Assembly: GCA_964650405.1 (NCBI GenBank)
Contig: CAZYTO010000001.1
Coordinates: 4,268 to 68,267, forward strand
Reading direction: 5' to 3'
Length of the DNA stretch: 64,000 nt
Source of the DNA: an uncultured Thermoanaerobaculia bacterium
Lineage (GTDB): Bacteria; Acidobacteriota; Thermoanaerobaculia; Gp7-AA8
Below are positions 29,890 to 53,689 of the stretch, one piece after another. Made by a program: the position numbers and the translations under genes. How positions within the stretch are numbered: position 1 is the first letter of the stretch; every line of letters starts with the position of its first letter. The notes beneath the pieces were generated by a model that was not told the DNA's origin, did not search any database, and worked only from the letters and a program-made list of their open reading frames with translations.

Positions 29890-29893
29890 GCCG

Positions 29894-38816: not shown

Positions 38817-40379
38817 CTACGCCCGCTTCTGTACTGCCATCCGCTGTTGTGCTGCCGTCGTCACTAGTGAGAGAAACCGCTCCACCTCCGCGCGCGAAAG
38901 GGTAGGGAGGTGCTCGAGGAGGCCGAGGAGTTGTGTCGCCTCGTAGTTACCGACGGCGGCGGCGAGCTTTTGTCTCATCAGTGCACGCACTTCGTCGCCG
39001 CCCCCTGCGAAGCCGCGTGGGATGGAGATCGCGCGTTGAACGACGTGGCCGTTTGTGAGGCGGATCTCCACGCGTGCACCGATGGGCTTGGTCGATTCGC
39101 GAAAATCCAACGGTCGCCGGTCGCCGGCGGCACGCGCCAGCGCCGCCACGAGCCGCGCGACCTGCCACGCATTGCGCAGGCGCGCCGTCTTTGCGAGGGT
39201 CAGGGCGAAGAGCGCGGCCTTCCAGCGGGGGATGCGGCGCAGCGCGGCGCCGATGGGAATGTCGGCCGTGAGCGCATTGACGGTCAACGGCACGTCATGA
39301 CGCGTCCGCACCCGTGCCGCCAGCGCCCAGACGTCGGGTCTGGCAATCCAGTCGCGCTTCAACTGGGCGGGCGTGAATTCGCGGGCCAGGATCGCCGAGG
39401 CGAGGACGAAGGGCGTGGAGAACGTGAGCGTGGAGATGCACGAGCGGGGTCCGTCGAGATACGGCGCGGAGTGTGCGTCCATCCCCACGGTGAAGATCGA
39501 GGCTCGGACGGCGACGGCCGCGATGTCGTCAGGCGATAGGTTGTGAGTGCGGACGAGGTCGAGCGTGGCATCGAGCGCGGCACAGAGATAGCCGCAAACG
39601 GGATAGAGCTTGTAACTGTTCGTCTCCGTATGCCATCGCTCGCCGAGGCCGTCGAGGAAGTCGCGCACCGGCAGGCGAGTGGCCCTGGCGAAGAAACCGC
39701 CGGAATCGTCGAGCGGATCGCGCGGTGCACGAAGGCCGGCGCGCACGGCGTCGATTGCTTCCATGCCGGTTCGCACCGGCAGCGCCGCACACAGCACCTT
39801 GGCATCGGAGCCGAGGAACGCGGGATAGAGCGCGTGGCCCGGGTACGACAGCGCGATGGCCAGCGCCTCGGCGAACTGTGTCTCGTTCAGCCCTTCGAGC
39901 CTGGCCCGTGCCGCGGCGGCCGCGACGAGGTGGAGGTGCGTCGCCATCTGACCGCGCGTGGAGCCGACCGCACAGACCATGTTGATGCGCGCCGCGAGCT
40001 CGTTGGCGATGAGCTGGGCGAGGAGCATCTCGGCGCCCGAGCGGCCATCGGCCAGTGCCAGGGGCACGATCACCGACGAGTGGCCGGTATGACCGCCGAG
40101 CATCACGTCGTCGAAGTCGACGACCATCGACCATGCCGCCATGAGCATGGCTGCATGCGCCGGCGGTGCGCTCTCGCCGGTCGGAACGATCCGCGCCGCG
40201 CCGGGACCGGGCGAGGGAAAGGCCGCGGCGATTTGCGCTCCGAGGTCGCTGTCGAAACCGGTGAAGACCGCGGCGAGCATCGACAGCCACTGGTTGACGG
40301 CCTGCTCGCGTACGTGCCGCGGCACGTCGTCGAGGGTGAGCCGGCACGCCCAGCGCGCCATGCGTTGGAGCGTGGTCAC
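38817..40379 (-). CDS. MmgE/PrpD-family protein (2-methylcitrate-dehydratase fold)
   Basis: 520 aa with an N-terminus typical of the family (..LTLDDVPRHVREQAVNQWLSMLAAVFTG..). GTG start at 40379. It lies downstream, on the same strand, of the FAAL-ACP-aminotransferase megaenzyme gene. Confidence 0.85.
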   Translation of the reverse strand: MTTLQRMARWACRLTLDDVPRHVREQAVNQWLSMLAAVFTGFDSDLGAQIAAAFPSPGPGAARIVPTGESAPPAHAAMLMAAWSMVVDFDDVMLGGHTGHSSVIVPLALADGRSGAEMLLAQLIANELAARINMVCAVGSTRGQMATHLHLVAAAAARARLEGLNETQFAEALAIALSYPGHALYPAFLGSDAKVLCAALPVRTGMEAIDAVRAGLRAPRDPLDDSGGFFARATRLPVRDFLDGLGERWHTETNSYKLYPVCGYLCAALDATLDLVRTHNLSPDDIAAVAVRASIFTVGMDAHSAPYLDGPRSCISTLTFSTPFVLASAILAREFTPAQLKRDWIARPDVWALAARVRTRHDVPLTVNALTADIPIGAALRRIPRWKAALFALTLAKTARLRNAWQVARLVAALARAAGDRRPLDFRESTKPIGARVEIRLTNGHVVQRAISIPRGFAGGGDEVRALMRQKLAAAVGNYEATQLLGLLEHLPTLSRAEVERFLSLVTTAAQQRMAVQKRA

Positions 40380-40592: not shown

Positions 40593-43500
40593 TCACGCAC
40601 GCACACCGGCCAGCCGCTCGTAGCCGGCTTCGTCCTCCCTCTTCTCGAGCCTGTGGTCGAGCAGGACGCGGAATCCCAGCTCGTCCGCGAGCCGCTCCAT
40701 CTCCAGCACCTGCTGGAGTGAAAGGTCATATCCGAGACCGCTGTCCTGGTAGCGCTGGTCCATGGCCAGCATCATCGTCTCGGCCATGCAGGCGTAGGCG
40801 CTGCCGCGGGCCAGCGAGGCGTTGAACCCGAGCGAGGCGTCGCCGGGCATCCGCACCACGCCGCCGTCTATGACCAGGACGTCGGGACGGGCCGCGCGCA
40901 CCGCGGCGTCGACGTTCGACGGCCGCGAGATGTCGCAGACGATGGCGCGCTTGCGCAGGTTCTCGTCGCGCACCATCCGCTCGGTCGTGCTCGTACAGCA
41001 GACGACGAGATCGACGTCCGGCAGCGTTCCGGCGGCGTCGACGGAGATCTCGAGCGCATGCGTCCGCCGGATCAGCTCCTCGCCGATGCGTACCAGCGCG
41101 GCACGGTCGGGCGTCGGCGGAAGGGTGAAGTCGAGCTCCTCGACCCAGCTTGCGACGGAGCCCGGGGTGAGGTCAGACCCGCTCCGCAGCTCGTCGAGGG
41201 ACCAGACGATCCGGCCGGCGACCTGCAGCAGGCGCTCGCGCGTCTCGTTCGGATGGGCGGGATTGCCGATGAGCACGAGCCGCCCCGCATCGCGCGAGAG
41301 GAGGATCGACAGCGCGGACCCGATGGCCCCGCCGGCACCGACGATGCCGACCGTGCGGCGGGCCAGGTTGAGGCTCCGCTCCGCCGCGGCCAGGCGGATG
41401 GTCTGCCGCGCCGCGACGGCCGTGAACGAGTTCCCGGTCGTCAGCGGCGGCAGTCCGTTGCCCTTGAGCGACAGGCCGCCCTGCGTGACCACGGAGGTGT
41501 AGGCGCCGAGGCCGATGATCTTCGCGCCGCGCTTCTGGGCCAGCTTCGCCGCGTCGTAGATCTCGGCCACGGCCCGGTCGTGCTTCATGGCCCGCAGTTC
41601 CTCGGCGCGCCGCGGCACGAGGATGAACTCCCCGTATGCCGACTTGTGATTGTCGCCGGTGACACGCGTCTCGCCGATGACCAGCGGGTCGAAGTTGTCG
41701 CCGAGGGCGTTCGAAAGCGCGGAGAGCTGCGCCTCGTCGAGCGGCGCGAGGCTGCCGTCGATATCGCCGTAGTCCTTCCACGCCAGCGGATGCACGAGGA
41801 AGGCGAAGCGCCCTTCGTTCCGGCGCGGCTCGAAGCGGTGGGCACGCGCCTCGGCGCGAGGGCGGTGGATCTCGACCGTGGCGCTGAAGCCGGTGACCTG
41901 CGAGGTGAGCGCAGCGAGGTTACGCCGGTCGATCCGTTGCAGCACGCGCTCCAGCGCGTGGAGGAAGAACTGGCACTCGTCCCACGTGGCCGTCAGCGGC
42001 GGCTCGATGCGCAGCACGCCCCCCTGGTTGAGCGTGTAGCCGACGCGTACGCCTTCGACGTGGAGGAGGTGGCTGACCACGAGGGCTGTCAGCGCTTCCT
42101 GCTCGCCGAGGTACCCGAGCAGGCCGTCGCCGGCATTGTGGCGAGTGAGACCAAAGCGGAGACCGAGGAGGTAGCCGCGCCCGCGGACTTCGCCGATGAG
42201 GCCCGGATAGCTGCGATCGAGCGCCAGCAGGCCGTCCTTGAGCCGGGCGCCGTTCGCGGCCACCTGGCCGATCAGCGCGCCTTTGTTCTCTTCGAGGAGA
42301 TCGAGGGTGGCCAGGCCGGCGCGGCAGGCCAGCGTATTACCTGCGAAGGTCGACGTGTGTTTCAGCGCGAACTCGTCGTTGTAGGCGGCGGCCGTGCAGA
42401 GACACGCGCCGATGGGAACGAGCCCGCCGCCAAGCGCCTTGGCCACGGTCATCACGTCGGGGGTGATGCCGAGATCGCGGCAGACGAACATCGCGCCGGT
42501 CCGGCCCAGCCCCGTCTGGATCTCGTCGGCGACGAAGAGCGTGCCGGTCTCGCGGCAGATCTTGCGCGCCTGGCGGAGATACCCCGCCGGCGGCTCCACG
42601 ATGCCGCCCTCTCCCTGGATCGGCTCGACGACGAATGCCGCGTGCCGGCCGCCGGAGAGGATCCGGCGTAGCGCGTCGAGATCGCCGTACGGAACGTACT
42701 CGAAGCCGGGCACCGGCGCTCCGAACGGTTTCTGGTACTTCTCCTTGTCCGTCGCGGAGAGCGCGCCGAGCGTCTTGCCGTGGAAACCGTTGTTCGCGGC
42801 GAGGACGGCGTGGCGTCCGGTCGTGGAGCGGCAAAGCTTGATGGCCGCCTCGATGGCTTCCGCGCCGCTGTTGGCGAACGTGACATACGCCATGCCCGGC
42901 GGCGCCACGGCGAGCAGCCGCTCCGCCAGCTCTCCGGCGGCGTTGAGCAGCGACGGCTGGACGAAGCTCGGCTCGCCGCGCTCGCGCACGGCCTGCAGCG
43001 CAGCCCAGATGCGGGGTGGATTGAAGCCGAACGGGAGGGCACCGTATTGCGCGAGAAAGTCGAGATACCGCCGGCCGTTCTCGTCCCACAGCCAGCTTCC
43101 CTCGCCGCGCACGAACGACTTGTCCATGCCCATTTGTGTCAGGAGACGCCCGAGCTCGGGGTTCACGGACGTTTCGAAGGGATGCGGGCGGCGAGCGGCG
43201 AGCGGCGAGCGGGGAGACGCTGGAGTCGAACGGGAGTCGGCCAGCGGGGGACGTTGCATGGCGACCGACGGCTGAAGCTGGGGCGGTGCGGACGGGATTG
43301 CCGCGGCCTGCGGAGTTAGACGCACCGGCAAGGGAGGTGGCGGCGGGCTGGTCGTTTTCTTCGTGTGCGGCGGAACGAGCGGCGTGACGTTGGCCGGAGA
43401 GGCCGGCTCGCGCGGCGTTTCCTGAATGCGGCGGACGGGCTGGCGGGGGCGCGGCCGCCCCTCGAAGAGGCTCCCCGCGTCCAGGTGGAGCGCGAACGTC

Positions 43501-45395
43501 TCCTCGATCTCGCCGACGAGGGTGACGACGACGAGGGAGTCGAGGCCGAACGCCACGAGCGGCAGGTCGCGGTCGAGGAGTGCAGCCGGCTGTCGCGTTC
43601 GTGCGGCGATGCCCTCGACCAGCCACGACTCCAGGCGGTCGAGGCCACGTCCCCGCTTCGGGGCAGTTGGTTCGTCCAGTCGGGCGAACAGCGCCTCGTC
43701 CCTCCAAGCGGTGATGGGGTCCAGGTTGCCAGCCAGGAACTCGTTCCGGATCAGCGCGCGCTGCGTCTTGCCGCTGGTCGTCTTCGGCAGGCTGTTCGGG
43801 CGGAGGAGGGAGACGGCGGAGACCTCGACCGTGAGCTCGGCGGCGACGGCGCTGCGGATGCGTGCCATGAGCGCATTCGTGTCGAGATCGCGCCGCGCCT
43901 CGCGGCGGACCTCGGCGACGATGACCAGTCTCTCCGCACCGGCCACGTCGGCCGAGACCGCCGCGACGAACGAGGCGTGAATGGCCGGATCGCACTGCTC
44001 GACGACCTGCTCGATGTCCTGGGGCGCGAGGTTGCGGCCGCGGATGATGATCAGGTCCTTGATGCGGCCGGTGACGAACAGCTCCCCATCGTGCAGGAAG
44101 CCGAGGTCGCCGGTGCGCATGAACGGACCGTCGCCATCGGCGAGATGCGCAGCAAACGTCTCCGCGGAGAGCTCCGGCTGATGCCAGTAGCCTTGCGCCA
44201 CGCTCGGGCTGCCGAGCCAGATCTCGCCCACTTCGTCCTCGTTGCAGCGGCGTCCCGAGCCGGATTCGACGATCACCACGCGCGAGTCGAGCAGGGGAGC
44301 CCCGCAACTGACGAGGCTCGCGCACGGCGCCGTGGCCGCCGGGCGCGGCCGATGCGACTCCAGGCTGGCGCGCGAGAACGACGTCGTGCCGCGGTGGTAG
44401 CGGCCGGTGGCAAAGAGCGTGTTCTCGGCGAGACCATAGCAGGGGAAGAACGCCTCGCGCCGGAAGCCGCACGGGGCGAACGCTTCGGCAAACGCATCGA
44501 GCGTGGCGGCGCGGATCGGCTCCGCGCCGTTGAAGGCGGTGCGCCACCGTGAGAGATCGAGTCCCTCCCGCTCCTCCGCAGAGATGCGCTCGACGCACAG
44601 CCCATAGCCGAAGTCGGGGGCGCCGCTGAACGTCCCGCCGTAACGGCTGACGGCGTCGAGCCAGAGGCGCGGCTTCTTGAGGAAATCGACCGGTGCGAGC
44701 AGGTAACACGGCACGCCGTTATAGAGCGACGACAAGACGATGCTGATCAGGCCCATGTCGTGGAAGAGCGGCAGCCACGACACGATGACCGTGTCGGGGC
44801 CGTGATGGACGGCCTCCTTCGCCAGGGCCTGATTGTGAATGATGTTGCCGTGGCTGACCATCACGCCTTTCGGCGCGGAAGTCGACGCTGACGTGTATTG
44901 CAGGAAGGCCAGAGTATCGGGTCCGGCATTGGGATCGACCCACGCCGAAGCTTCGTCGAGGGACACCTCGCTGGTGATCAGCCACTCGACGGCGGCCAGG
45001 CCGGGGGCTTCGTCGAAGCGCGCCGCCAACTGGCGATGGACGACGTCGGTGGTCATGGCCACTTTGGGCCGGGCGTCGTCGAGGATGGCCGCCAGGCGCT
45101 TGAGGTTGTGATTGGCCCGCGGCGGATAGCCGGGAACAGCCACGGCGCCGGCGGCCAGACATCCATAGAAGGCGGCGATGTACTCGGTCCCGCTGGGATA
45201 GAGGAGCAGGACGCGCTCGCCCCGCGCGCCGAGCCGTTGCAGCCGGGCGGCCAGGGCCCGTACGCGCCGGTCCAACTGGCCGAAGGAGAGGGTCTCCGAC
45301 TCGTCGCCTCCGCTGAGGAACGTATAGGAGCGCGCGCCCGGCCGGGTCTGGGCGCGGTCGCGAAGCAGGTGAATGAGCGAAGCAGGCGATGCCAT
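40593..45395 (-). CDS. Four-domain biosynthetic enzyme: fatty acyl-AMP ligase (FAAL) - ACP - Pro-rich linker - class-III (PLP) aminotransferase - C-terminal Rossmann-fold NAD(P)-binding dehydrogenase-like domain
   Basis: 1,600 aa. The N-terminal ~580 aa is an adenylation/FAAL fold (..YTFLSGGDESETLSFGQLDRRVRALAARL..). The carrier domain has a GLDSL phosphopantetheine site. The linker is PPPPPLPVRLTPQAAAIPSAPPQLQPS. The aminotransferase motifs are ..ANSGAEAIEAAIKL.., ..FHGKTLGA.., and ..VADEIQTGLGRTGAMF... The C-terminal ~450 aa contains GIVGAGGAIGSALSILL but no family that can be confidently assigned. Confidence 0.85.
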   Translation of the reverse strand: MASPASLIHLLRDRAQTRPGARSYTFLSGGDESETLSFGQLDRRVRALAARLQRLGARGERVLLLYPSGTEYIAAFYGCLAAGAVAVPGYPPRANHNLKRLAAILDDARPKVAMTTDVVHRQLAARFDEAPGLAAVEWLITSEVSLDEASAWVDPNAGPDTLAFLQYTSASTSAPKGVMVSHGNIIHNQALAKEAVHHGPDTVIVSWLPLFHDMGLISIVLSSLYNGVPCYLLAPVDFLKKPRLWLDAVSRYGGTFSGAPDFGYGLCVERISAEEREGLDLSRWRTAFNGAEPIRAATLDAFAEAFAPCGFRREAFFPCYGLAENTLFATGRYHRGTTSFSRASLESHRPRPAATAPCASLVSCGAPLLDSRVVIVESGSGRRCNEDEVGEIWLGSPSVAQGYWHQPELSAETFAAHLADGDGPFMRTGDLGFLHDGELFVTGRIKDLIIIRGRNLAPQDIEQVVEQCDPAIHASFVAAVSADVAGAERLVIVAEVRREARRDLDTNALMARIRSAVAAELTVEVSAVSLLRPNSLPKTTSGKTQRALIRNEFLAGNLDPITAWRDEALFARLDEPTAPKRGRGLDRLESWLVEGIAARTRQPAALLDRDLPLVAFGLDSLVVVTLVGEIEETFALHLDAGSLFEGRPRPRQPVRRIQETPREPASPANVTPLVPPHTKKTTSPPPPPLPVRLTPQAAAIPSAPPQLQPSVAMQRPPLADSRSTPASPRSPLAARRPHPFETSVNPELGRLLTQMGMDKSFVRGEGSWLWDENGRRYLDFLAQYGALPFGFNPPRIWAALQAVRERGEPSFVQPSLLNAAGELAERLLAVAPPGMAYVTFANSGAEAIEAAIKLCRSTTGRHAVLAANNGFHGKTLGALSATDKEKYQKPFGAPVPGFEYVPYGDLDALRRILSGGRHAAFVVEPIQGEGGIVEPPAGYLRQARKICRETGTLFVADEIQTGLGRTGAMFVCRDLGITPDVMTVAKALGGGLVPIGACLCTAAAYNDEFALKHTSTFAGNTLACRAGLATLDLLEENKGALIGQVAANGARLKDGLLALDRSYPGLIGEVRGRGYLLGLRFGLTRHNAGDGLLGYLGEQEALTALVVSHLLHVEGVRVGYTLNQGGVLRIEPPLTATWDECQFFLHALERVLQRIDRRNLAALTSQVTGFSATVEIHRPRAEARAHRFEPRRNEGRFAFLVHPLAWKDYGDIDGSLAPLDEAQLSALSNALGDNFDPLVIGETRVTGDNHKSAYGEFILVPRRAEELRAMKHDRAVAEIYDAAKLAQKRGAKIIGLGAYTSVVTQGGLSLKGNGLPPLTTGNSFTAVAARQTIRLAAAERSLNLARRTVGIVGAGGAIGSALSILLSRDAGRLVLIGNPAHPNETRERLLQVAGRIVWSLDELRSGSDLTPGSVASWVEELDFTLPPTPDRAALVRIGEELIRRTHALEISVDAAGTLPDVDLVVCCTSTTERMVRDENLRKRAIVCDISRPSNVDAAVRAARPDVLVIDGGVVRMPGDASLGFNASLARGSAYACMAETMMLAMDQRYQDSGLGYDLSLQQVLEMERLADELGFRVLLDHRLEKREDEAGYERLAGVRA

Positions 45396-45576
45396 GACTG
45401 TTCGATATCGATTCGATGACGGTCCGATTCGTGTGACTCGTTGCTGACGGCGCGGGGATTTGTGACGGCAATGTAGATCGGAATACGGAAGTTGTCAATT
45501 CCATGAAGAAAGAATTGCGTCATGCCGTTATTTAATGTATAACGCGGCCATCCACTATTGCGGGCCGGAGGATCTG
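45396..45576. promoter_or_regulatory. AT-richer divergent promoter region of the biosynthetic cluster
   Basis: Candidate sigma70-like elements for the plus operon: TTGCGT-N17-TATAAC (about 45517-45545). RBS GGAGG at about 45566-45570, then ATG at 45577. Repeated TGTGAC motifs lie upstream. Confidence 0.35.
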
Positions 45577-46707
45577 ATGAATTTCCTGAAACGGGATCGG
45601 GAGACGCTGGAGAGATTTCTGCCGGGGCTCGACGCCCGCCTGCTGAACATCCCCCTCATGGACATCGAACAGCCGGGAAACCCCGGCCTCACCTTCCTGC
45701 GCGAGCTGGAAGGCGCCGCCCTGCTGGTTCCTGCCCAGCACGGCGGTAAGGGAGCCTCGGCCGCGGAAGCCATCCAGATTCACCGCGCCGTGGCCACCCG
45801 GTCGCCCTCCCTGGCCATCGCCATGACCATGCATAATTTTTCCGTCGCCACCCTGGTCGAGTACCTCTTCTATGGCGACTACACGGTGGAGCTGCTGCAG
45901 CAGATCGCCGGCGGCCAGTTGCTGGTGGCCTCGGGGTTCGCCGAGGGGCGGGCGGGCACGAGCATTCTCGATCCGGCCATGAAGGCTACGCCGCTGGAGG
46001 GCGGCGGCTACCTCCTCAACGGCAGCAAGAAGCCCTGCAGCCTCCCGAATTCGATGCACATTCCTACGGCCAGCGGGGCGGTGCCGTCCAAAAGCGGCAA
46101 CGGCGGTCATCGCCGGGCCGTTGCCGTTGTTCCGGCTGATGCCGAGGGGATCGATCGGAGGCCGTTCTGGAGCAGCAACGTTCTACGGGGCGCGGAGAGC
46201 GAAGAGCTCTGCCTGACCAACGTGGCCATCACCGACGCGCAGCTCTTCTTCCCGGAAGTGGAGGAGAGCCTCGATGCCGTCGAGGCGGGCGGGTTTCTCT
46301 GGTTCGAGCTGCTCGTCTCGGCCTCGTATCTCGGCGTGGCCTCGGCCCTCGTGGAGAAGGTGCTCACCAGCAACCGTGGCGACGCCAATGAACGGATGCA
46401 ACTGGCCATCGAATGCGAAGGGGCCATGGCCGCGCTGGAAGGCGTCGCGCGCGCCATGCAGACGGGCGAGCGGGGCGAGGCCATCCTCGTACAGTCGCTC
46501 CTCGTCCGCTTCTCCGTGCAGCAGGCCATCGAGCGGATCACCGCTCGGGCGGCCGAGCTCCTCGGCGGCATGGCCTTCATCAAGTCGCCCGACGTCGGCT
46601 ACCTCTACGCGGCCAGCCGGGCCCTGGCCTTCCATCCGCCGTCGCGGCTCAGCGTGAGTGCGGCCGTCGACGGCTACCTGCACGGCCAGCCGATGCAGGT
46701 GGCGTAA
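45577..46707 (+). CDS. Acyl-CoA-dehydrogenase-fold flavoenzyme (candidate amine N-hydroxylase / acyl-ACP dehydrogenase)
   Basis: ACAD middle-domain pattern (..GRAGTSILDPAMKATPLEGGGYLLNGSKKPCS..) and a C-terminal helical domain. The RBS-supported start is at 45577. The listed upstream ATG at 45535 would overlap the putative -10 box. Confidence 0.7.
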   Translation: MNFLKRDRETLERFLPGLDARLLNIPLMDIEQPGNPGLTFLRELEGAALLVPAQHGGKGASAAEAIQIHRAVATRSPSLAIAMTMHNFSVATLVEYLFYGDYTVELLQQIAGGQLLVASGFAEGRAGTSILDPAMKATPLEGGGYLLNGSKKPCSLPNSMHIPTASGAVPSKSGNGGHRRAVAVVPADAEGIDRRPFWSSNVLRGAESEELCLTNVAITDAQLFFPEVEESLDAVEAGGFLWFELLVSASYLGVASALVEKVLTSNRGDANERMQLAIECEGAMAALEGVARAMQTGERGEAILVQSLLVRFSVQQAIERITARAAELLGGMAFIKSPDVGYLYAASRALAFHPPSRLSVSAAVDGYLHGQPMQVA

Positions 46708-46716
46708 ACGGAGGCG

Positions 46717-47187
46717 GTGATCATGGACAAGCACAACCGCTTCCATACGCCGGCGATCTACAACCTCGAGCGGCTGGACTGGCTGGTAATCGGTGCCGTA
46801 GCCCTCATCCTGCTGTGCGTGGAGCGGCATGAGGTGCGGTGGTGGCCTTTCGTCATTGCCTTCGCGTTTCCCGACGTCATCGGGACGTTCCCCGGCCTCT
46901 ACTGCTATTACGGGCGGCGCAACGGCGCGCATCGCTCCATTCCCGGCGTCATTCACCAGCTCTACAACTTCGGACACTCGTTCGCCACGCTCGGCCTGTT
47001 CTGTGCCGGCTGGTTCCTGGTGACGCGCCGCTTCGAATGGTGGATGCTGGCGTTCCCCATCCATCTCGCGGGCGACCGGTCGATCTTCGGCAACATCTAC
47101 AAGCCATTCGGCACGGCCTTCGAGCCGGTGCCCCACGACGCCTTCGTCCGCTTCGAGCGCGAGTACCGCGCCGCCGGCACCTGGTGA
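46717..47187 (+). CDS. Small integral membrane protein (156 aa, ~4 TM), hypothetical
   Basis: Hydrophobic segments WLVIGAVALILLCV, WWPFVIAFAFPDVIGTF, FATLGLFCAGWFLV, WWMLAFPIHLAG. Tightly spaced within the operon. Confidence 0.5.
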   Translation: MIMDKHNRFHTPAIYNLERLDWLVIGAVALILLCVERHEVRWWPFVIAFAFPDVIGTFPGLYCYYGRRNGAHRSIPGVIHQLYNFGHSFATLGLFCAGWFLVTRRFEWWMLAFPIHLAGDRSIFGNIYKPFGTAFEPVPHDAFVRFEREYRAAGTW

Positions 47188-47198
47188 GGAGGACGCTC

Positions 47199-48155
47199 AT
47201 GACTGCCATCCCGAAGGAAGCGGACTGGAACGAGGCGCCCGGCCTGATCGAAGGCGCCAGCCGCCTCGAGCTGACCGCGCGCGATTGCCATCTCGACTAT
47301 TGGCTGACGGCCGTGCCGCAGGGCACGCTGCGCGGAACCGTTCACGGGCACTCGCCGCAGGCGCGCATCCCCGACTACATGCTGCGCGAAGGGCCGCTGC
47401 GGGCAGCCATCATGAACGAGTTCGCCTTCCGGGCCATCGCCGAGGAGAAGGCCACACGCGCCATCACCTACATCGTGGCCAGCGCGCCCGACGTCTGGTC
47501 CATGGAGTTCTTCGTCACCCAGCTCGTTGACGAGGCACGCCACTCGCGCGTGCTCCGCGACCACCTCGTGGAACCCGGCGTAACGGAGGACGAGCTGTTC
47601 CCGCCGAACGAGCGCATTGCTGGCGACGACGTCCGCGCCACCCTGGCGCCGCTCGAAGACTTCGCCCTGCCGATGATCCGCGACGATCGCGACTTCATCG
47701 CCGGAGTGGTCATCCTGACCATTCTCGTGGAAGGCGTTCTGGCACCGGCCGCGGAGCTGTCGCACTGCAAGTGGCGGCTCCTCGATCCCGCCGCGGCGGA
47801 GATCGAACGGGGAGCCAACATCGACGAGATCCGCCACCTCACGGTGGGCAGCGCGATCGTCCGCGAGTACCTGCTTGCGCATCCCGGCGAGAAGGCGCAC
47901 GTCCTCGAGATCATCACGCGGGGGCGGGCTCTGTGGGCCGCCCTCCCGGCCTCGGAGGTGATCTTCAAACGCGAGATCCTCTTCCAGCAGGGACTGGAGG
48001 AGCACGCTGCCGTAGCCGGCGACTACGAGGTCTGGCCGGGGCGGCGCCTCGTGGATACTACGCCGGAAGAGCGCCTGATGACCGCGCACACGTGGTCGGC
48101 GGAGATGCAGAACAGCCGCCTGCGCTATATGGGATTGCCGGAGGCCATTCCGTGA
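47199..48155 (+). CDS. Ferritin-like non-haem di-iron carboxylate protein (putative oxygenase/oxidase)
   Basis: RBS GAGGAGG precedes ATG 47199. Two E...ExxH pairs: EFAFRAIAEE / QLVDEARH, and ILVEGVLAPAAE / NIDEIRH. This is the 4-helix-bundle di-iron ligand pattern found in AurF-, ADO- and UndA-like enzymes. Confidence 0.6.
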   Translation: MTAIPKEADWNEAPGLIEGASRLELTARDCHLDYWLTAVPQGTLRGTVHGHSPQARIPDYMLREGPLRAAIMNEFAFRAIAEEKATRAITYIVASAPDVWSMEFFVTQLVDEARHSRVLRDHLVEPGVTEDELFPPNERIAGDDVRATLAPLEDFALPMIRDDRDFIAGVVILTILVEGVLAPAAELSHCKWRLLDPAAAEIERGANIDEIRHLTVGSAIVREYLLAHPGEKAHVLEIITRGRALWAALPASEVIFKREILFQQGLEEHAAVAGDYEVWPGRRLVDTTPEERLMTAHTWSAEMQNSRLRYMGLPEAIP

Positions 48156-49186
48156 TGCCGGCGAGCGATGCACCGGCTTCCGAGCGCCTGGCCGCGGTCG
48201 TGCGCCGCGGGCTGCGGCTCGACGAAGGCGCGGCCGTATCTCTACGGGAGGTCGGAGAGCTCGCCAACATCAATTACGTCTATCGCGTCGAAGTGCCGGG
48301 CCGCAGCCTCTACCTCAAGGTCGTGCCCGAAAAGCCGAAGCGTCTTCCGGTACGCCTCCCGCGGGAGCGTGTCTTTTCCGAGGCGGAGGCCATCCGCCGT
48401 TTCGGCGCACTGGCGGGAGGGCGCGTTCGCATCCCCGAGGTGCTGTTCGTCGACGAAGAGGAGATGGCCCTCGGCATGACCGACGTGGGCGAAGGGCGGC
48501 ACGTGCTCTTCGAGGTGTTGCCCGACGGCTTCGAGCTGCTGAGCGAAGCCGCGGAAGCGCTGGGACTGGCTCTCGGGACGATTCATCGCGGCACGCGGGC
48601 AGGCGGCAGCCTGAGGCCCGCTGCGGAAGAGGCGGTGATTCGCAGGATCGTCTTCGACGGTCTGCTCGCGCCGGGTGCCATGCACATCTTTCCCGAGGCG
48701 TGGCCCGACGTGCTGGCCGAGATGCAGGCCTTTCGCGAGTGCCTCATCCACGCCGACCTCTGGAGTAAGAACCTCCTCGTCCGCGCGGGCGAGCCCGTGG
48801 CCATCGTCGATTTCGAAGGTGTCTGCTACGGCGATCCCGCTTTCGACCTCGGCACGCTGACGGCGGTGGCGGTGTTGCCGGCACTGGAACGGCCGGCGTT
48901 GGCAGGAGAGGCGCTGGGGTTTGTGACGCGCCTGCTGCGGAGCTGGGCGATGACCGCCGGCGCCGACGCCTGGTACCCGGCCGTGCAGCGGCGGACGTTC
49001 CGCGCCACGGCGACGTTCCTCGCCGCTCGGGGCTTCGGTCCGTTCGCCTACGACCTGAGCGACGAGGCAAAGCAGCGGATCGCCCAGCTCGGGCGCGCGC
49101 TGGCCACGAGCCCGCCGCCGGACTTCGCCGGCTTTCGCGATCTCGTCCTCCGGTATGCAGCCGTGACCGCCGAGGCGCGCTCGTGA
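48155..49186 (+). CDS. Aminoglycoside-phosphotransferase/choline-kinase-like (APH-fold) kinase
   Basis: Catalytic-loop HADLWSKNLL and metal-binding IVDFE motifs. ATG overlaps the previous stop (TGATG). Confidence 0.75.
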   Translation: MPASDAPASERLAAVVRRGLRLDEGAAVSLREVGELANINYVYRVEVPGRSLYLKVVPEKPKRLPVRLPRERVFSEAEAIRRFGALAGGRVRIPEVLFVDEEEMALGMTDVGEGRHVLFEVLPDGFELLSEAAEALGLALGTIHRGTRAGGSLRPAAEEAVIRRIVFDGLLAPGAMHIFPEAWPDVLAEMQAFRECLIHADLWSKNLLVRAGEPVAIVDFEGVCYGDPAFDLGTLTAVAVLPALERPALAGEALGFVTRLLRSWAMTAGADAWYPAVQRRTFRATATFLAARGFGPFAYDLSDEAKQRIAQLGRALATSPPPDFAGFRDLVLRYAAVTAEARS

Positions 49187-50331
49187 TGCGCAGCCGGGTC
49201 TACGACTCGATCGACGACATCGGCGCGGCCCGGCTTGCGCCGCTGTCCACCGGCCTCGATTTCTCCTACGGCCTGCTGCGGGCTATGGAGCGCTCGATCT
49301 GGGGCGACCTCGCCGTCCGCTACCTGGCCGTCGAGGATGACGACGGCACCCTGCTCCTCTTCACGCCCGTCTATGCCGGCAGTAATCTCAATTTCAACGC
49401 GCTGCTGCCGAAGGCCATCCAGAAGGGGTATGGCGCGCTTGTTCGCGCGGTGGGGCAGGCCATGGCCACCCGCGTGGCCGTCGTCGGCTGCCTCATCTCC
49501 GATCGAGGCTGGATCCCGATGCATCCGGAGCTGCGGGATCGCGCCGCGGCATTGCGCCTGATGTTGCAGGACCTCGACGTCGTGGCGAAGCAGCACCATG
49601 CCCAACTGGCCATGCTCAAGGACATCCATCGCGACTTTCCGGAGGAAGACCGCGCCGTCCTGCGCGCCGGCGGATACCTGGAGGGCTTCTCCCTCCCCAC
49701 CATCCGCATCAACACGGCCTATCCGTCGTTCGAGGACTTCCTGGCGAAGCAGTTGACGAAGAACGGCCGCAAACATGCGCGCAAGCAGTTTCACCGGGCC
49801 GAGGGCGTCTTCGAGCTGCGGGCCATCGCCGATTTCGAGGAGATGGTGCCCCGCGTCTTTCCGCTGCACCGGGCGGTGTTCCTGAAGGCGAAGTACCAGT
49901 TCGAGGAGCTGCCGCCGCGCTTCTTCGTCGAGTGCGCCCGGTCGCAGACTCCGAAGACGGAGCTGATCGTCTGCGAGCGGGTGGCTGACCGGCGCATTGT
50001 CGGTTCGCTGATGATCTTCTACGACGACCACGAACAGCAGAACAAGCGGATCGGCATCGACTACAGCATCGAAGAGAGTGGTCTGGTCTACAACCTGCTC
50101 AACTACACCGGCATCCAGCGCGCCATCGCCCGCGGCATCCGGACGCTCTGGCTCGGCCAGAGCTCCTACGTCCCCAAGACGCGCCTCGGCGGTGAGCTCG
50201 ACGACCAGTACCTGCTGATCAAGGCGTACGACCCGCTCCTGAAGCCGACCCTGCCGCTGCAGAAGTGGTGGATGTCCCGCTACTCCGCGGCCAACATCCT
50301 CGCCGGCGTCGAACAAGGGGTGTCGCTGTGA
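49183..50331 (+). CDS. FemXAB/BioF2-like GNAT-fold acyl/aminoacyl transferase
   Basis: 382 aa with two tandem GNAT-like halves. It resembles the Acetyltransf_6 / FemAB family that includes tRNA-dependent aminoacyl transferases. ATGA overlap with the kinase gene. Confidence 0.6.
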   Translation: MMRSRVYDSIDDIGAARLAPLSTGLDFSYGLLRAMERSIWGDLAVRYLAVEDDDGTLLLFTPVYAGSNLNFNALLPKAIQKGYGALVRAVGQAMATRVAVVGCLISDRGWIPMHPELRDRAAALRLMLQDLDVVAKQHHAQLAMLKDIHRDFPEEDRAVLRAGGYLEGFSLPTIRINTAYPSFEDFLAKQLTKNGRKHARKQFHRAEGVFELRAIADFEEMVPRVFPLHRAVFLKAKYQFEELPPRFFVECARSQTPKTELIVCERVADRRIVGSLMIFYDDHEQQNKRIGIDYSIEESGLVYNLLNYTGIQRAIARGIRTLWLGQSSYVPKTRLGGELDDQYLLIKAYDPLLKPTLPLQKWWMSRYSAANILAGVEQGVSL

Positions 50332-51374
50332 CCCGGGTCGTGCTGACGGGCGCCGCGACGATGACGGGCTTCGAGGTGCTGAAGTCGCTGCTCGAGTGCC
50401 ACGAGGTGACGTCCATCCGGCTGCTGCTGCCGGCAGGAGCATCCGGCCGCGTCGGCACGCTCCTCGGAGGGCTCCCTGCCTCGGTGCAGGTCACGGAGGC
50501 GCGGATTGATCTGCTGCAGTTCGGGTTGCCGCTCGCGGCGCTGGAGGAGCTTGCCGCGTCGTCGGACGTGGCCGTTCACTGTGCACAGCGCGAGAGGCCC
50601 GATCAGGATCTCGAACGGGCGCGGGAGGTGAACGTCCTGCCGGTCGTTACGTGGATCGCGCTGCTGGAGCGGCACCCGGCCTTGCGCCTGCACCACCTCT
50701 CGTCGGCGCTCGTCGGCGGCGACCGGAAAGGCCTCTTCACGGAGTTCGACCTCGACTGCGGCCAGGGTTTTCACAATGCCTGGGAGCGCAGCAAGTTCGA
50801 GGCTGAGGTGCGGCTGCGCGGATCGAGCGTGAGCGACCGGGTGACGATGTATCGCCCCAGCCATACGCTGGCCCGGCTGCCGGCCATGGAGCTCGGCGGC
50901 GCCTCACCGCTGCTGGCGACGCTCGCCGCGGCCTCGCTGCTGCCCGGAGACCCCAAAGCACGGCTCGACTTCGTCCCTGCCGACTACGTGGCCGGCGCGA
51001 TGGTGGCGCTGCTGCGCAAGGAAGCGGAAGGAACGTTCCACATCGCCTGCGGCTGGAACGATTCGCTGCCGGTGACGCAGGCCGCCGCGCTGGCCGCTCA
51101 AGGCCGCGGGCGGGCCCGGGGCGCGTTCGTGCTGCCGCGCATCGCTTCCTGGCCGCAGAGCGTGTTCGGAGCGGCCGCGCCGAACGGGCTGTCGACGCGG
51201 CGCCTGGCGTTCGCCACGGCACGCGACCTCCTCCACCAGGGGCCGGTATTCGACACGTTCCGCGCGGAGGGCGCGCTCGACATCCCCTGCCCGGCGCCCG
51301 AAAGCTGGCTCGCCGATGCGGTCCGCCTCGGCGAATCGCAGCACTGGCACAGAGCCAGTCGCGTCGTTCGCTGA
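50328..51374 (+). CDS. Stand-alone thioester reductase (NRPS R-domain-like extended SDR, NAD_binding_4)
   Basis: GTG start overlapping the previous stop (GTGA). TGAATMTGFEV nucleotide-binding loop and catalytic Y..SK (HNAWERSKFEAE), as in carboxylic-acid reductase / NRPS terminal reductase domains that release aldehydes from carrier proteins. Confidence 0.75.
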   Translation: MTRVVLTGAATMTGFEVLKSLLECHEVTSIRLLLPAGASGRVGTLLGGLPASVQVTEARIDLLQFGLPLAALEELAASSDVAVHCAQRERPDQDLERAREVNVLPVVTWIALLERHPALRLHHLSSALVGGDRKGLFTEFDLDCGQGFHNAWERSKFEAEVRLRGSSVSDRVTMYRPSHTLARLPAMELGGASPLLATLAAASLLPGDPKARLDFVPADYVAGAMVALLRKEAEGTFHIACGWNDSLPVTQAAALAAQGRGRARGAFVLPRIASWPQSVFGAAAPNGLSTRRLAFATARDLLHQGPVFDTFRAEGALDIPCPAPESWLADAVRLGESQHWHRASRVVR

Positions 51375-51434: not shown

Positions 51435-52076
51435 TCACCAGAGCAACGGCACCAGCGCCCGCACCTCGCGCCGGTAGGTTGTGTACGCGTCGCCGAGGCG
51501 GCCGATCATCTCAGCTTCTTCATAGCGGATGCGGCGGACGTAGGCGAAGAGCTGGAAGACCAGCGAGAGCGCGGCCCCGATCCAGGCGTGGAGAAACAGC
51601 AGCGTCCCCACGAACAGCAGCAGCGCGCCGCCGTACGCGGGGTGGCGGATGAAGCGGAACGGCCCTGTGCGGATGACCTGGTGGTCGTCGTACACAGTGA
51701 TGAACCAGGTGAAGTAGCGGCCGAGCGTGCGCACGGCCCAAACGCGCAGACTGAGACCGGCCAGCATCAGGGCGGCCGCGATCGTGGTGACAGCGTCCCA
51801 GTCGAAGCTGGCGGGGTAGCGCAGGTACAGCGCCTCCAGCACGCCGGCGAGCTGGGTGAGGTAGACGGACCAGACGATCTGCGCGGCCGTGCCGCGGTCG
51901 CGGGGAGGGGCAGCCGCGTCGATCGGCTTGTAGACCGGCTGGAAGATGGAGATGGCCATGGCCACGGCCACCAGGATCCAGAGCTGCGGATGGAGCAGCG
52001 CCCGCGGCTGTCCCGCGGCGGGCAGGATGTAGAACGCGGCCGCGGCGATGAGCGCCGTGAGGACCTTGCGGATCAT
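51435..52076 (-). CDS. Isoprenylcysteine carboxyl methyltransferase / phospholipid methyltransferase-family membrane protein
   Basis: 213 aa, multi-TM, with RHPAYGG and EE...L motifs. ATG at 52074-52076. The longer listed ORF upstream is Arg/Pro-rich read-through. Confidence 0.8.
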   Translation of the reverse strand: MIRKVLTALIAAAAFYILPAAGQPRALLHPQLWILVAVAMAISIFQPVYKPIDAAAPPRDRGTAAQIVWSVYLTQLAGVLEALYLRYPASFDWDAVTTIAAALMLAGLSLRVWAVRTLGRYFTWFITVYDDHQVIRTGPFRFIRHPAYGGALLLFVGTLLFLHAWIGAALSLVFQLFAYVRRIRYEEAEMIGRLGDAYTTYRREVRALVPLLW

Positions 52077-52651
52077 CCGTGACCCGGGTCCGCGAGCTCC
52101 ACGAGCCCCTTCGACTGCCGGGCCGCGGCCTTCTGGATGTCGCGGAGGATGCGCAGGTGGTGGCGATGGTGGATGTCGAGGAAGAAGAACCACTGGCGCG
52201 AGGTGAGGTACTTCATCCGCGGGTGCATGCTCTTGCCGGTTGCCGCGCGGACGCGGCCGAGGTCCCAGTCGTTGTCGGCGAGCCGGCGGTGCAGCCGCGT
52301 CTTCAGCGGCTGGATCTCGACCAGGGAGCCCGTTCCCGGGACGAGGGGCGGAATGGTCGGGAACAGCTTGCGGGGGATGCGGCCCGTCACCATGAGACTG
52401 CGGCCGAGGAAGCTCGGCTGGTCGCGCTCGTGCCCGCCGCCGAGCGACTCGTCGAGGCGGTCGAAGACCCAGTGCGTAGCGAGGTAGAGGTGCTCGAGCT
52501 GCTGGCCATACGTCCAGTGACTGACCTCGGGAACGTGCAGGGTGAGGTCGCGCCGGCAATGCTCGGCCAGCTCCGCCGCGAAGCGGGGAGCGGCATGGAG
52601 CCGGCCCTCGCCGTCGAGCGATCCCCACAGCCGGTGCACTGCTCGTGTCAT
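52073..52651 (-). CDS. DinB/YfiT-like putative metalloenzyme
   Basis: 192 aa, with RBS AGGAGAG upstream of ATG 52651. Motifs WTYGQQLEHLYLATHWVFDRL and FLDIHHRHHLRILRDI fit the DinB_2 His-triad pattern. Its stop overlaps the ICMT start (ATGA). Confidence 0.5.
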   Translation of the reverse strand: MTRAVHRLWGSLDGEGRLHAAPRFAAELAEHCRRDLTLHVPEVSHWTYGQQLEHLYLATHWVFDRLDESLGGGHERDQPSFLGRSLMVTGRIPRKLFPTIPPLVPGTGSLVEIQPLKTRLHRRLADNDWDLGRVRAATGKSMHPRMKYLTSRQWFFFLDIHHRHHLRILRDIQKAAARQSKGLVELADPGHG

Positions 52652-52821: not shown

Positions 52822-53295
52822 TCAACGCCCAAACGAGAATGGATTGAAGATCACCCGGAAGCCTCGCCGCACGTTCTTCGTGCCGATCTGGCGGGCGAAT
52901 GCTCTCGGCGCTTTGCCGGCCTTGCGGGCGGCATCACTGAAGCCGCGGGCGGCATTGCGGAGGGAATCGCGGACCAGTCCGTCGCGCCGCTTGCGGGCGG
53001 AGCGTTTGCTGCGCTTCCTGAAGGTGTCGAAGCCTTCGGCGAACGAATTCGCGGCCCGGTAAACAGCGCGCGACGCGCCGAGGACCAGCTTCTGGAATGG
53101 CTTCGTACCCTTCGTGTAGCGGCGTTTCTTGCCCTTCTTCTTCGTGCGGCTGAAGTAGACCGGAGCGCCGGCCTGCTGCTGCGTCTCCTGGGCGGTGTAG
53201 CTCACGGGCGGTGTTCCTTCGCTTCCTGTGGCGCTGGTCCTGGTCTCGGGCTGGTCGGTGCCGCCCTTGGTGCCTCGTGTGGTGTCAGTTGCCAT
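52822..53295 (-). CDS. Hypothetical Lys/Arg-rich protein (157 aa)
   Basis: RBS AGGAGG then ATG at 53293-53295 (MATDTTRGTKGG...). Contains ..PVYFSRTKKKGKKRRYTKG.. Confidence 0.45.
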   Translation of the reverse strand: MATDTTRGTKGGTDQPETRTSATGSEGTPPVSYTAQETQQQAGAPVYFSRTKKKGKKRRYTKGTKPFQKLVLGASRAVYRAANSFAEGFDTFRKRSKRSARKRRDGLVRDSLRNAARGFSDAARKAGKAPRAFARQIGTKNVRRGFRVIFNPFSFGR

Positions 53296-53360
53296 GTCCT
53301 GCCTCCTCGTTGTCCGGCTTGGGGTTGTCCGGCTCCTGGGGGTTCGCGTGTCGGTGACGG

Positions 53361-53603: not shown

Positions 53604-53689
53604 GCCTTGCCTCCTCGATTGCGTCAGTGTTCCGTCTCTTCACGTATGGATAGAAGGAAAGCTATACCAAAGGACGGCGATATGTCAAT

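Follow-up and report, generated by a model that had tools for sequence, protein, structure and literature searches.

The window, the whole 64-kb stretch of DNA analysed here, holds a gene cluster at 38.8-52.6 kb in which a gene for a small integral membrane protein is followed by one for a ferritin-fold di-iron oxidase. The features of the cluster are listed below with the basis for each assignment.

38817..40379, minus strand: MmgE/PrpD-family protein, of the family of VlmK (PF03972, PF19305)
40593..45395, minus strand: FAAL-ACP-class III aminotransferase-acyl-ACP-reductase protein, 1600 aa (AMP-binding, PP-binding, Aminotran_3)
45535..46707, plus strand: VlmH-like flavin-dependent monooxygenase with an acyl-CoA-dehydrogenase fold, DszC class (DszC matches)
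46723..47187, plus strand: VlmO-like integral membrane protein, 154 aa, with an alternative GTG start at 46717 (D/H/H/D quartet, VlmB neighbour)
47188..47193, plus strand: Shine-Dalgarno sequence GGAGGA of the di-iron gene (read from the sequence)
47199..48155, plus strand: VlmB-like ferritin-fold di-iron oxidase, 318 aa (homology to PDB 6d9f/8wvr, invariant ligands)
48155..49186, plus strand: APH-family kinase (PF01636, E = 4.2e-18)
49186..50331, plus strand: FemAB-like tandem-GNAT protein, 381 aa (PF04339, PF13480)
50328..51374, plus strand: NAD_binding_4/thioester-reductase-like SDR, start inferred at GTG 50328 (domain matches)
51435..52628, minus strand: membrane protein with a C-terminal ICMT/PEMT methyltransferase domain (domain match)

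The original prediction described two adjacent genes at 46717-48155, the second preceded by a strong ribosome-binding site, and the sequence confirmed both points, with both genes on the plus strand. The di-iron gene runs from ATG 47199 to TGA 48153-48155, and its GGAGGA motif lies immediately 3' of the stop codon of the membrane protein gene (TGA 47185-47187). The pair had also been called translationally coupled, which is borne out only in part. The two genes themselves are separated by 11 nt without overlap, and the next three junctions do overlap: the ATG of the kinase gene overlaps the stop codon of the VlmB-like gene by 1 nt (TGATG, 48153-48157), and overlaps are likewise found between the kinase and FemAB-like genes (TGATG, 49184-49188) and between the FemAB-like and SDR genes (GTGA, 50328-50331). 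The open reading frame of the membrane protein opens at GTG 46717, which would give the 156 amino acids proposed originally. However, the start is likely to be ATG 46723, giving 154 amino acids, because GGAGG is present at 46710-46714 and 33 of 33 aligned homologs begin with MDK; since all of these start at the methionine of that motif, GTG 46717 was rejected as the true start.

A single-sequence search of the PDB with the di-iron protein returned 6d9f/8wvr, a "Putative VlmB homolog", at E = 3.9e-100. The alignment, which the original prediction had proposed as a check, covers the full length of the protein (residues 3-317 of 318 against 4-319, approximately 51% identity), and a profile search of the PDB recovered the same homolog at E = 1e-158. 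Close homologs carry the NCBI label "VlmB-like protein". Both of the E..ExxH motifs noted originally are real (E82...E112-A-R-H115 and E178...E210-I-R-H213), and none of the six ligand residues (E82, E112, H115, E178, E210, H213) varies among the 82 family sequences compared, one of which is the PDB chain; all metal ligands are thus common to that chain and the window protein. That chain is about equally distant (about 51-55%) from every locus examined. The window protein is 56-65% identical to the VlmB proteins of actinobacterial clusters, with the ligands and many second-shell residues invariant; the genome search behind this comparison gave 417 hits. Scans of the di-iron and membrane proteins against Pfam and NCBIfam at E ≤ 0.01 assigned neither to a family; when the Pfam threshold was relaxed to E = 10, the di-iron protein gave a single, spurious 11-residue match. 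By sequence homology, then, the di-iron protein is a full-length member of the VlmB family, the bridge to the characterised VlmB (UniProt E4N6B3) being the PDB "putative VlmB homolog", the NCBI names and the homologs at Kitasatospora and Streptomyces loci. In Streptomyces, VlmO and VlmB are the membrane enzyme and the di-iron oxidase responsible for the azoxy (N-N-O) group of valanimycin-type antibiotics; VlmO yields a hydrazine, which VlmB turns into an azoxy compound (PMC11705231, review). The window protein is accordingly predicted, from its family, to oxidise a hydrazine to an azoxy group.

The AlphaFold2 model of the membrane protein (pLDDT 81) contains helices at residues 10-33, 40-65, 75-84/87-101 and 106-122, followed by a C-terminal helix at 139-150. 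The four membrane-length helical segments agree with the originally proposed topology of about four transmembrane helices; hydropathy analysis gave three segments at the threshold used. Four residues of this protein, D51, H85, H114 and D118, show no variation among the 79 sequences aligned. The columns of this quartet correspond to D51/H82/H110/D114 in the homologs from Kitasatospora (L044), Streptomyces (L010), Wenjunlia (L019) and Rhodococcus (L059), and D51/H82/H110/D114 are the positions described as essential in VlmO, where they probably bind iron (PMC11705231, review). The window protein is 34-46% identical to the actinobacterial copies. Its match to Pfam DUF4260 (PF14079), seen only with the threshold relaxed to E = 10, is weak and under the gathering score (E = 0.027, 14.9 bits), and a similarly weak resemblance to DUF4260 has been described for Ady6 (PMC9379638). 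Foldseek comparison of the model with solved structures gave nothing significant (best E = 0.68). Homologs at 50% identity or more number 100, and the family is small, comprising 145 representatives after 50% clustering among 1.84 billion proteins; at all loci that we looked at, its members occur in biosynthetic contexts. Together, these observations support membership of the VlmO family, for which the actinobacterial locus homologs and the matching residue numbers provide the bridge to characterised VlmO (UniProt E4N6B1, Q84F35). The protein is therefore a predicted metal-dependent, N-N bond-forming hydrazine synthase.

The two families also travel together. Homologs of VlmB and VlmO were found side by side in 78 of 80 loci drawn from two phyla (69 actinobacterial and 11 acidobacterial); they lie on one strand in 76 of these 78 and within 700 bp of each other in 70. 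Only 11 nt separate the window genes; for most actinobacterial loci, the distance between the aligned regions is 150-700 bp. In some proteins the VlmO domain is naturally fused to a VlmA-type domain (PF09924), which ties VlmO to the aminoacyl-ester step. Chance resemblance is excluded by the homology of both proteins, i.e., the match of the di-iron protein to 6d9f and the 100 close homologs of the membrane protein.

We then considered the remaining genes of the cluster. The VlmH-like protein has its best matches in DszC (NCBIfam E = 2e-14; PDB E = 2.8e-13). An acyl-CoA-dehydrogenase-like gene of this kind is present in 72 of the 80 loci, the window copy being 36-49% identical to those in actinobacterial loci and 76-85% identical to those in the closest acidobacterial loci, and it is predicted to encode a fatty-amine N-hydroxylase. 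Two PDB entries, 4ppm, "Aminotransferase" (E = 8.4e-20), and the acyl-ACP reductase 6jzu (E = 8.6e-15), match the C-terminal 421 residues of the 1600-aa protein, whose predicted role is to turn a fatty acid, by way of an aldehyde, into a fatty amine. The MmgE/PrpD-family protein, which shows 59-65% identity to its counterparts in seven of the closest acidobacterial loci and 26-40% to those in 32 actinobacterial loci, may be a phosphate-eliminating lyase. The sole kinase in the operon belongs to the APH family and, across the 80 loci, is conserved in the acidobacterial ones only; it presumably stands in functionally for VlmJ. Its match to the NCBIfam model GntI, an N-oxide/N-hydroxy kinase, is weak and far below the cutoff (E = 0.0015). 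The ICMT/PEMT-type protein is conserved in seven acidobacterial loci and could carry out carboxyl O-methylation. No flavin reductase (VlmR) domain was detected by Pfam among the 45 ORFs scanned, which are the larger ones and represent about 80% of the window.

The canonical tRNA-dependent transferase of these pathways, VlmA (PF09924, LPG_synthase_C), is missing. Using tblastn with two VlmA-type domains, we obtained nothing better than E = 0.74 in the 64-kb window and no match in the 11 acidobacterial loci, while the same two queries matched 56 actinobacterial loci. The Streptomyces locus L010 illustrates the canonical set, with VlmA (PF09924, E = 9.4e-61), a VlmH-like protein, VlmO, VlmB and MmgE/PrpD. 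A candidate for the missing activity is the FemAB-like protein, whose model (pLDDT 90.6) was matched by Foldseek to FemX (TM 0.61), to the aminoacyl-tRNA-dependent enzymes Sba18 and Sbb17 and to soluble domains of MprF; its best TM-scores are to aminoacyl-tRNA-dependent transferases. A single-sequence PDB search with this protein gave spurious matches only, and a profile-profile comparison with the VlmA family found no homology (probability 0.2%), so that the two proteins have a fold in common but no detectable sequence homology. From the modelled fold, we infer that the FemAB-like protein could act as the aminoacyl transferase in place of VlmA.

The cluster was also compared with characterised systems. 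The valanimycin clusters of S. viridifaciens and Kitasatospora setae, KaO/KaB of KA57-A and ElaO/ElaB of elaiomycin all have the same small D/H/H/D membrane protein beside a di-iron protein of approximately 320 aa with the E, ExxH, E, ExxH pattern, and in both the valanimycin-type clusters and the window a VlmH-like N-hydroxylase and a VlmK-like MmgE/PrpD protein are nearby. The hosts differ, being Actinomycetota in the former case and probably Acidobacteriota in the latter, as does the source of the amine, which comes from valine decarboxylation in valanimycin and would come from a fatty acid here. Relative to valanimycin, the window lacks VlmA (PF09924), seryl-tRNA synthetase and, among the ORFs scanned, VlmR, and its kinase is of the APH family whereas VlmJ is of the PF19279 type (family according to PMC9379638). 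The long-chain logic is shared instead with azodyrecin (Ady6/Ady8 of Streptomyces sp. RM72 and A1C6; AzdO/AzdB of S. mirabilis P8-A2), in which a fatty acid is reduced, transaminated, N-hydroxylated, aminoacylated and rearranged to the azoxy stage, after which the carboxyl group becomes a methyl ester. AzdO is a membrane protein of 155 aa, against 154 aa for the window protein. Azodyrecin biosynthesis uses a separate reductase and transaminase, the VlmA homolog Ady7/AzdA and the PF04072 methyltransferase Ady1, whereas the window has the fatty-amine steps fused in one 1600-aa protein, a FemAB-like transferase and an ICMT/PEMT-type candidate. The window additionally encodes an MmgE/PrpD lyase and a kinase, suggesting a valanimycin-like dehydration. 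Hydrazine synthetases of the cupin/MetRS type (ForJ, Spb40-type) perform the same step, from an O-aminoacyl-hydroxylamine to a hydrazine (PMC11705231), but these are soluble zinc cupins fused to or paired with a MetRS-like domain, with no homology to the four-helix membrane protein described here.

Given these relationships, we conclude with high confidence that the pair carries out the N-N-forming and N-oxidising steps at the core of an aliphatic azoxy pathway, one of the valanimycin/azodyrecin/elaiomycin type, much as the original prediction of an N-N bond-forming or azoxy-oxidising module had anticipated; the full-length VlmB homology, the four VlmO residues and the synteny all point this way. 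Family membership, catalytic residues, synteny and operon structure were observed directly, and the reactions of VlmO and VlmB are those in the literature. The substrate, the product and the roles of the exchanged enzymes would be as follows. The FAAL-ACP-aminotransferase-AAR protein, encoded by the divergent gene, would activate a fatty acid, reduce the ACP thioester to an aldehyde and transaminate this to a fatty amine, which the VlmH-like flavoenzyme would N-hydroxylate. Esterification of the hydroxylamine oxygen with an aminoacyl group would follow, the amino acid probably being serine or another with a hydroxyl group and the FemAB-like protein most likely being the catalyst. With a metal at D51/H85/H114/D118, the VlmO-like protein would rearrange the O-aminoacyl-N-alkylhydroxylamine to an N-alkylamino amino acid, creating the N-N bond of a hydrazine, and the VlmB-like protein, through its six conserved ligands and O2, would oxidise the hydrazine by way of an azo intermediate to the azoxy group. 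A serine-derived side chain may then be dehydrated by the APH kinase together with the MmgE/PrpD lyase, in the manner of VlmJ and VlmK, and the ICMT-like enzyme may methylate the carboxylate. On the evidence of its gene content, the cluster is probably a variant not reported before, with a long-chain aliphatic azoxy compound as its product. The pair itself is thus informative about the product of the cluster, pointing to such a compound as most likely and away from alkanes, nitro compounds and plain fatty amines.

Other readings of the locus were considered. Because the canonical ester-forming step of VlmA is missing, the pair might belong to the VlmO and VlmB families and yet act on a different intermediate or yield a different N-N product (a hydrazine, or an azo, hydrazone or diazo compound). 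Phosphorylation of the hydroxylamine oxygen by the APH kinase might, for instance, supply the leaving group for N-N bond formation. The absence of VlmA from the window and from the 11 acidobacterial loci, the lack of sequence homology between VlmA and the FemAB-like protein and the faint GntI match of the kinase are all compatible with this. So is a related fusion cluster, L082, which has VlmO-VlmA and no VlmB match within 8 kb on either side (L083 likewise has the fusion and no VlmB in its examined flanks), indicating that VlmO chemistry need not be tied to azoxy formation, and so is Dob3, a ferritin-like di-iron oxidase that makes a diazo group from a hydrazone (PMC12154687). We nevertheless consider a different intermediate or product unlikely: the 56-65% identity of the window VlmB to its actinobacterial counterparts, with every ligand and many second-shell residues invariant, speaks for an unchanged reaction, the FemAB-like model is closest by TM-score to aminoacyl-tRNA-dependent transferases, and the VlmK-like lyase accounts for the kinase more simply.

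The original prediction had also left room for AurF-type N-oxygenation and for aldehyde deformylation, and neither found support. A ferritin-like fold with two ExxH motifs in a cluster that makes an amine would suit an N-oxygenase of the AurF/CmlI/AzoC type that gives a nitroso or nitro compound from the fatty amine, with the azoxy group arising by non-enzymatic coupling and the membrane protein being unrelated. However, at thresholds up to E = 10, the di-iron protein matched none of the N-oxygenase families in Pfam, and the PDB searches, by single sequence and by profile, retrieved neither AurF nor CmlI; the cluster has a separate flavin-dependent candidate for N-hydroxylation, and the membrane and di-iron genes are conserved together in 78 of 80 loci, which leaves this identity very improbable. 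Deformylation by an ADO/UndA-like enzyme in partnership with the AAR-like part of the 1600-aa protein, giving hydrocarbons, is suggested by the homology of that domain to cyanobacterial AAR, and cyanobacterial AAR partners a di-iron ADO. It too has a very slight chance of being correct, given that neither ADO nor UndA was matched in Pfam or the PDB, that the di-iron protein is a full-length VlmB homolog and that the AAR domain is fused to an aminotransferase, which implies that the aldehyde is consumed by transamination. A housekeeping ferritin, rubrerythrin or ribonucleotide reductase R2 next to a generic membrane DUF by chance, the pair of outcomes against which the original prediction had been set, is effectively refuted on present evidence. 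Marginal profile matches exist to R2lox (partial, positions 100-229, E = 2.9e-4) and to RNR small subunits (R2, E = 0.04-0.2), as expected from a common superfamily, but the VlmB homolog at 1e-158 is ahead by more than 150 orders of magnitude. The membrane family, with its few representatives and biosynthetic contexts, does not behave as a housekeeping DUF, and the pair is syntenic in biosynthetic clusters of two phyla.

Closely related clusters occur beyond the window. The core of the cluster layout is common to the 11 Acidobacteriota loci, which are labelled Thermoanaerobaculia, Pyrinomonadaceae, Holophagales, Bryobacterales, "Ca. Angelobacter" and unclassified Acidobacteriota. Our search of the literature on azoxy clusters in Acidobacteria/Acidobacteriota turned up nothing relevant, and the distribution survey that we found covers actinobacteria alone. 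These loci may represent a widely conserved, apparently unreported acidobacterial variant of the azoxy pathway, with a single FAAL-ACP-aminotransferase-AAR megasynthase, a FemAB-like protein for VlmA and an APH kinase for VlmJ, the product of which would be a new class of long-chain azoxy lipids, e.g., a 2-(alkyl-ONN-azoxy)acrylate or its methyl ester; we judge the chances of this full proposal to be evenly divided.

Enzymatic formation of N-N bonds is rare. The VlmO/VlmB cascade was not elucidated until 2023-2024 and, to our knowledge, all work on it has concerned Streptomyces and related bacteria; a core of this type is now seen in a probable acidobacterium. The FemAB-like protein would be an apparent non-orthologous replacement of VlmA and thus a candidate second route to O-aminoacyl-hydroxylamines, one that, if true, would be useful for biocatalytic synthesis of hydrazines and azoxy compounds. 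Acidobacteriota are abundant in soil, but very few natural products from this phylum have been described in detail. Given the high conservation of VlmB (68-91% identity across many metagenomes), the proposed azoxy lipid may serve the physiology or ecology of soil acidobacteria, as opposed to being an antibiotic of sporadic occurrence.

The window has a G+C content of about 67%, and reading of the sequence places the pair within a run of six tightly packed plus-strand genes extending from 45535 to 51374:

45535-46707, plus strand: acyl-CoA-dehydrogenase-fold protein, first gene of the run
46723-47187, plus strand: 154-aa membrane protein, 15-nt gap to previous gene
47199-48155, plus strand: 318-aa protein with two ExxH motifs, 11-nt gap to previous gene
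48155-49186, plus strand: APH-family kinase, its ATG sharing one base with the preceding stop (TGATG)
49186-50331, plus strand: FemAB-like/GNAT protein, TGATG junction with the kinase gene
about 50328-51374, plus strand: NAD_binding_4 reductase, GTGA overlap with previous gene

The original prediction had singled out the second and third genes as a small membrane protein and a ferritin-like di-iron protein. Its coordinates, sizes, ribosome-binding site and motifs held, except that the membrane protein has 154 rather than 156 residues, its start most likely being ATG 46723 because all homologs begin MDK. This ATG is preceded by GGAGG 8 nt upstream, and GGAGGA (47188-47193) directly follows the TGA of the membrane gene, 5 nt before ATG 47199. 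The two genes, described there as translationally coupled, do not overlap; 11 nt separate them.

Pfam and NCBIfam searches assigned no family to the di-iron protein. A PDB sequence search matched one entry set, 6d9f/8wvr ("Putative VlmB homolog"; E = 3.9e-100, residues 3-317), and a profile from 11 homologs improved this match to E = 1e-158. By contrast, the next solved proteins were R2-like ligand-binding oxidase (E = 2.9e-4) and ribonucleotide reductase small subunits (E = 0.04-0.2), and a housekeeping ferritin/R2 identity thus failed this direct test. An AurF-type N-oxygenase and an ADO-type deformylase failed it as well, with AurF, CmlI, ADO and UndA chains absent from the profile-search matches at E <= 10. 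More than 1,400 relatives were found in a large protein database, the named ones being "VlmB-like protein" from Acidobacteriota or Thermoanaerobaculia assemblies. Both predicted ExxH motifs were recovered: E82, E112, H115, E178, E210 and H213 are invariant in 82 of 82 compared sequences and, judged from sequence, are the classical ferritin-like four-carboxylate, two-histidine site. We assign the protein to the family of VlmB, the valanimycin di-iron oxidase.

Sequence comparison likewise places the membrane protein in the family of VlmO, the valanimycin membrane enzyme. Close homologs, none of them named in the database, share its length of about 154 aa. HMMER, run exhaustively over 1.84 billion cluster representatives, returned only 145 relatives, so the membrane-protein family is small and specialised. 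A genome scan with a VlmB alignment, using one genome per GTDB species, identified 417 genomes with a relative; the best 80 of the loci comprised 11 from Acidobacteriota and 69 from Actinomycetota, mostly Streptomyces. Homologs of the window's membrane protein were detected by tblastn in 78 of these 80 VlmB loci (34-46% identity in the actinobacterial ones), on the same strand as the VlmB gene in 76 of the 78 and at most 700 bp from it in 70. Residues D51, H85, H114 and D118 are invariant in a 79-sequence alignment; in the proteins from Kitasatospora, Streptomyces, Wenjunlia and Rhodococcus, the aligned residues are D51, H82, H110 and D114. Exactly these four are named for VlmO in review PMC11705231, as essential residues and probable iron ligands. 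According to that review, VlmO forms the N-N bond that converts O-seryl-isobutylhydroxylamine to a hydrazine, VlmB oxidises the hydrazine first to an azo intermediate and then to the azoxy compound, and no VlmO structure exists. In agreement with the last point, the AlphaFold2 model of the window's protein (pLDDT 81; four helical segments long enough to cross a membrane, then a short helix at the C terminus) had no significant match among solved structures. Its sole Pfam signal, a sub-threshold match to DUF4260 (E = 0.027), is shared with the VlmO homolog Ady6, for which weak DUF4260 similarity was reported (PMC9379638), and another homolog, AzdO, is described as a membrane protein of 155 aa.

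Further genes of the cluster flank the run:

divergent strand: 1600-aa protein with AMP-binding (FAAL-like), PP-binding and class III aminotransferase domains
38817-40379, beyond the 1600-aa protein: MmgE/PrpD protein
downstream, opposite strand: membrane protein with ICMT/PEMT methyltransferase domain

Over its C-terminal 421 aa, the 1600-aa protein matched 6jzu, a long-chain acyl-ACP reductase from cyanobacteria (E = 8.6e-15), and PDB entry 4ppm, "Aminotransferase" (E = 8.4e-20), which we take to be the prodigiosin transaminase PigE; this combination of predicted domains is consistent with a route from fatty acid through aldehyde to fatty amine. The opening gene of the run is closest to DszC-class flavin monooxygenases and 36-49% identical to its counterpart in actinobacterial loci, which fits a putative VlmH-type N-hydroxylase. 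VlmK, which acts in valanimycin dehydration, is itself an MmgE/PrpD protein (PMC9379638). In NCBIfam, the kinase gave weak matches below threshold to methylthioribose kinase (E = 4e-10), to LxmK, a class V lanthionine synthetase kinase (E = 2e-7), and to GntI, the guanitoxin N-oxide kinase (E = 0.0015). The GntI match hints at an N-OH group, in place of a serine hydroxyl, as a possible target of phosphorylation.

The canonical layout, exemplified by Streptomyces locus L010, differs: SARP regulator, VlmA (PF09924, E = 9.4e-61), aldehyde dehydrogenase, VlmH-like, SRPBCC protein, VlmO, VlmB and MmgE/PrpD. VlmA-type domains were found in 56 of the 69 actinobacterial loci, in none of the 11 acidobacterial loci and nowhere in the window (best E = 0.74). 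The APH kinase, FemAB-like protein, NAD_binding_4 reductase and ICMT-type protein were found, among the 80 loci, only in acidobacterial ones, where the copies share 35-81% identity with those of the window and gene order is kept. The FemAB-like family is small (164 matches, with at least 60% identity in all 120 listed). Its confident AlphaFold2 model (pLDDT 90.6) has a tandem-GNAT fold, and the best TM-score matches were aminoacyl-tRNA-dependent transferases, namely FemX (TM 0.61), Sba18/Sbb17 and the soluble domains of MprF/A-PGS/L-PGS (E from 1e-9 to 1e-12); tandem GNATs that depend on CoA gave matches too. Profile-profile alignment with VlmA was negative (probability 0.2%). The protein thus occupies VlmA's logical place, with a predicted fold class common to both and no detectable sequence homology. 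We infer that it replaces VlmA, and likewise that VlmJ's part is played by the APH kinase. An exception to the former is locus L053 (uncultured Acidobacteriota), which at about 9333-12100 carries VlmH-like, VlmO-like, VlmB-like, APH kinase and ICMT-type genes and within 10 kb has no FemAB-like, NAD_binding_4 or VlmA-type gene. The strongest competing reading, which we regard as improbable, has the pair acting, in VlmA's absence, on some other activated hydroxylamine or giving some other N-N product.

Under the preferred reading, in which the FemAB-like protein acts in place of VlmA, a fatty acid would be loaded and reduced on the 1600-aa megasynthase and transaminated to a fatty amine, which the VlmH-like enzyme would N-hydroxylate. 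The FemAB-like protein would aminoacylate the hydroxylamine oxygen, the VlmO-like enzyme would form the N-N bond of a hydrazine, and the VlmB-like enzyme would carry out its four-electron oxidation to the azoxy group; optional tailoring might comprise phosphorylation and elimination (kinase, MmgE/PrpD), then O-methylation. N-N bond and azoxy formation are proposed from family membership and published family biochemistry, the remaining steps from domain content and analogy with azodyrecin and valanimycin.

Five homologs (P0224, P0229, P0230, P0243 and P0258) carry a VlmO domain at the N terminus and, fused to it at the C terminus, a DUF2156/LPG_synthase_C domain (PF09924), which is VlmA's family; VlmO is therefore physically tied to the enzyme that makes its substrate. 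Fusion P0224 lies in two loci:

L082, 8001-9482: fusion P0224
L083, 3897-5378: fusion P0224

Besides the fusion, this cluster encodes FAAL, ACP, KS, an aminotransferase-AAR protein, a VlmH-like protein sharing 49% identity with that of the window, a CMAS-type methyltransferase and two fatty-acid desaturases. The 8-kb flanks on either side revealed no VlmB, so the product may be a hydrazine lipid instead of an azoxy lipid. P0264 (571 aa) is a different fusion, with a VlmO-like domain (451-568) behind a long, polytopic N-terminal membrane region resembling an amino-acid permease.

Upstream of the pair, at a distance of about 14 kb, is a hopanoid/isoprenoid gene block (26345-32820, minus strand). 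The stretch between it and the putative azoxy cluster (32888-38763) contains efflux genes and a CHRD protein, and other genes lie downstream of the cluster or farther upstream:

26345-28246, minus strand: DXP synthase
28234-29889, minus strand: PNP_UDP_1 and squalene/phytoene-synthase fusion
29894-31000, minus strand: radical-SAM and DUF3463 protein, HpnH-like
30892-32820, minus strand: squalene-hopene cyclase
32888-34411: outer-membrane efflux protein
34404-35612: MacB/FtsX permease
35823-37064: HlyD-type adaptor
37222-38763, plus strand: protein with two CHRD-domain matches
52822-53643, minus strand, downstream of the cluster: DUF6312 protein
53690-55684, downstream: ABC1/UbiB-type atypical kinase
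55685-56230, downstream: glyoxalase/bleomycin-resistance-fold protein
56348-57820, minus strand, downstream: FAD_binding_3 monooxygenase
1969-5250, minus strand: 1093-aa TonB-dependent receptor with CarboxypepD_reg domain
10636-12078: glucuronate isomerase (uronate catabolism)
12847-14055: enolase-superfamily dehydratase (uronate catabolism)
15396-21332, minus strand: 1978-aa bacterial alpha-2-macroglobulin

The efflux system (32888-37064) could export the cluster's product, and the gene for the glyoxalase-fold protein is a candidate for self-resistance; CHRD was absent from every related locus searched. The alpha-2-macroglobulin, TonB receptor and uronate-catabolism genes are ordinary chromosomal context, presumably fitting an acidobacterial origin.

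The pair is a new example of a known, recently characterised enzyme pair, which lessens the surprise. No report of the pathway outside actinobacteria or of a VlmA-less architecture was found in the searchable literature, though Shi et al. (JACS 2023) may mention either; the genome survey in PMC9379638 covered 3,146 actinobacteria only. The cluster variant appears moderately novel, and the identification is solid and useful, with a clear route to experiment.
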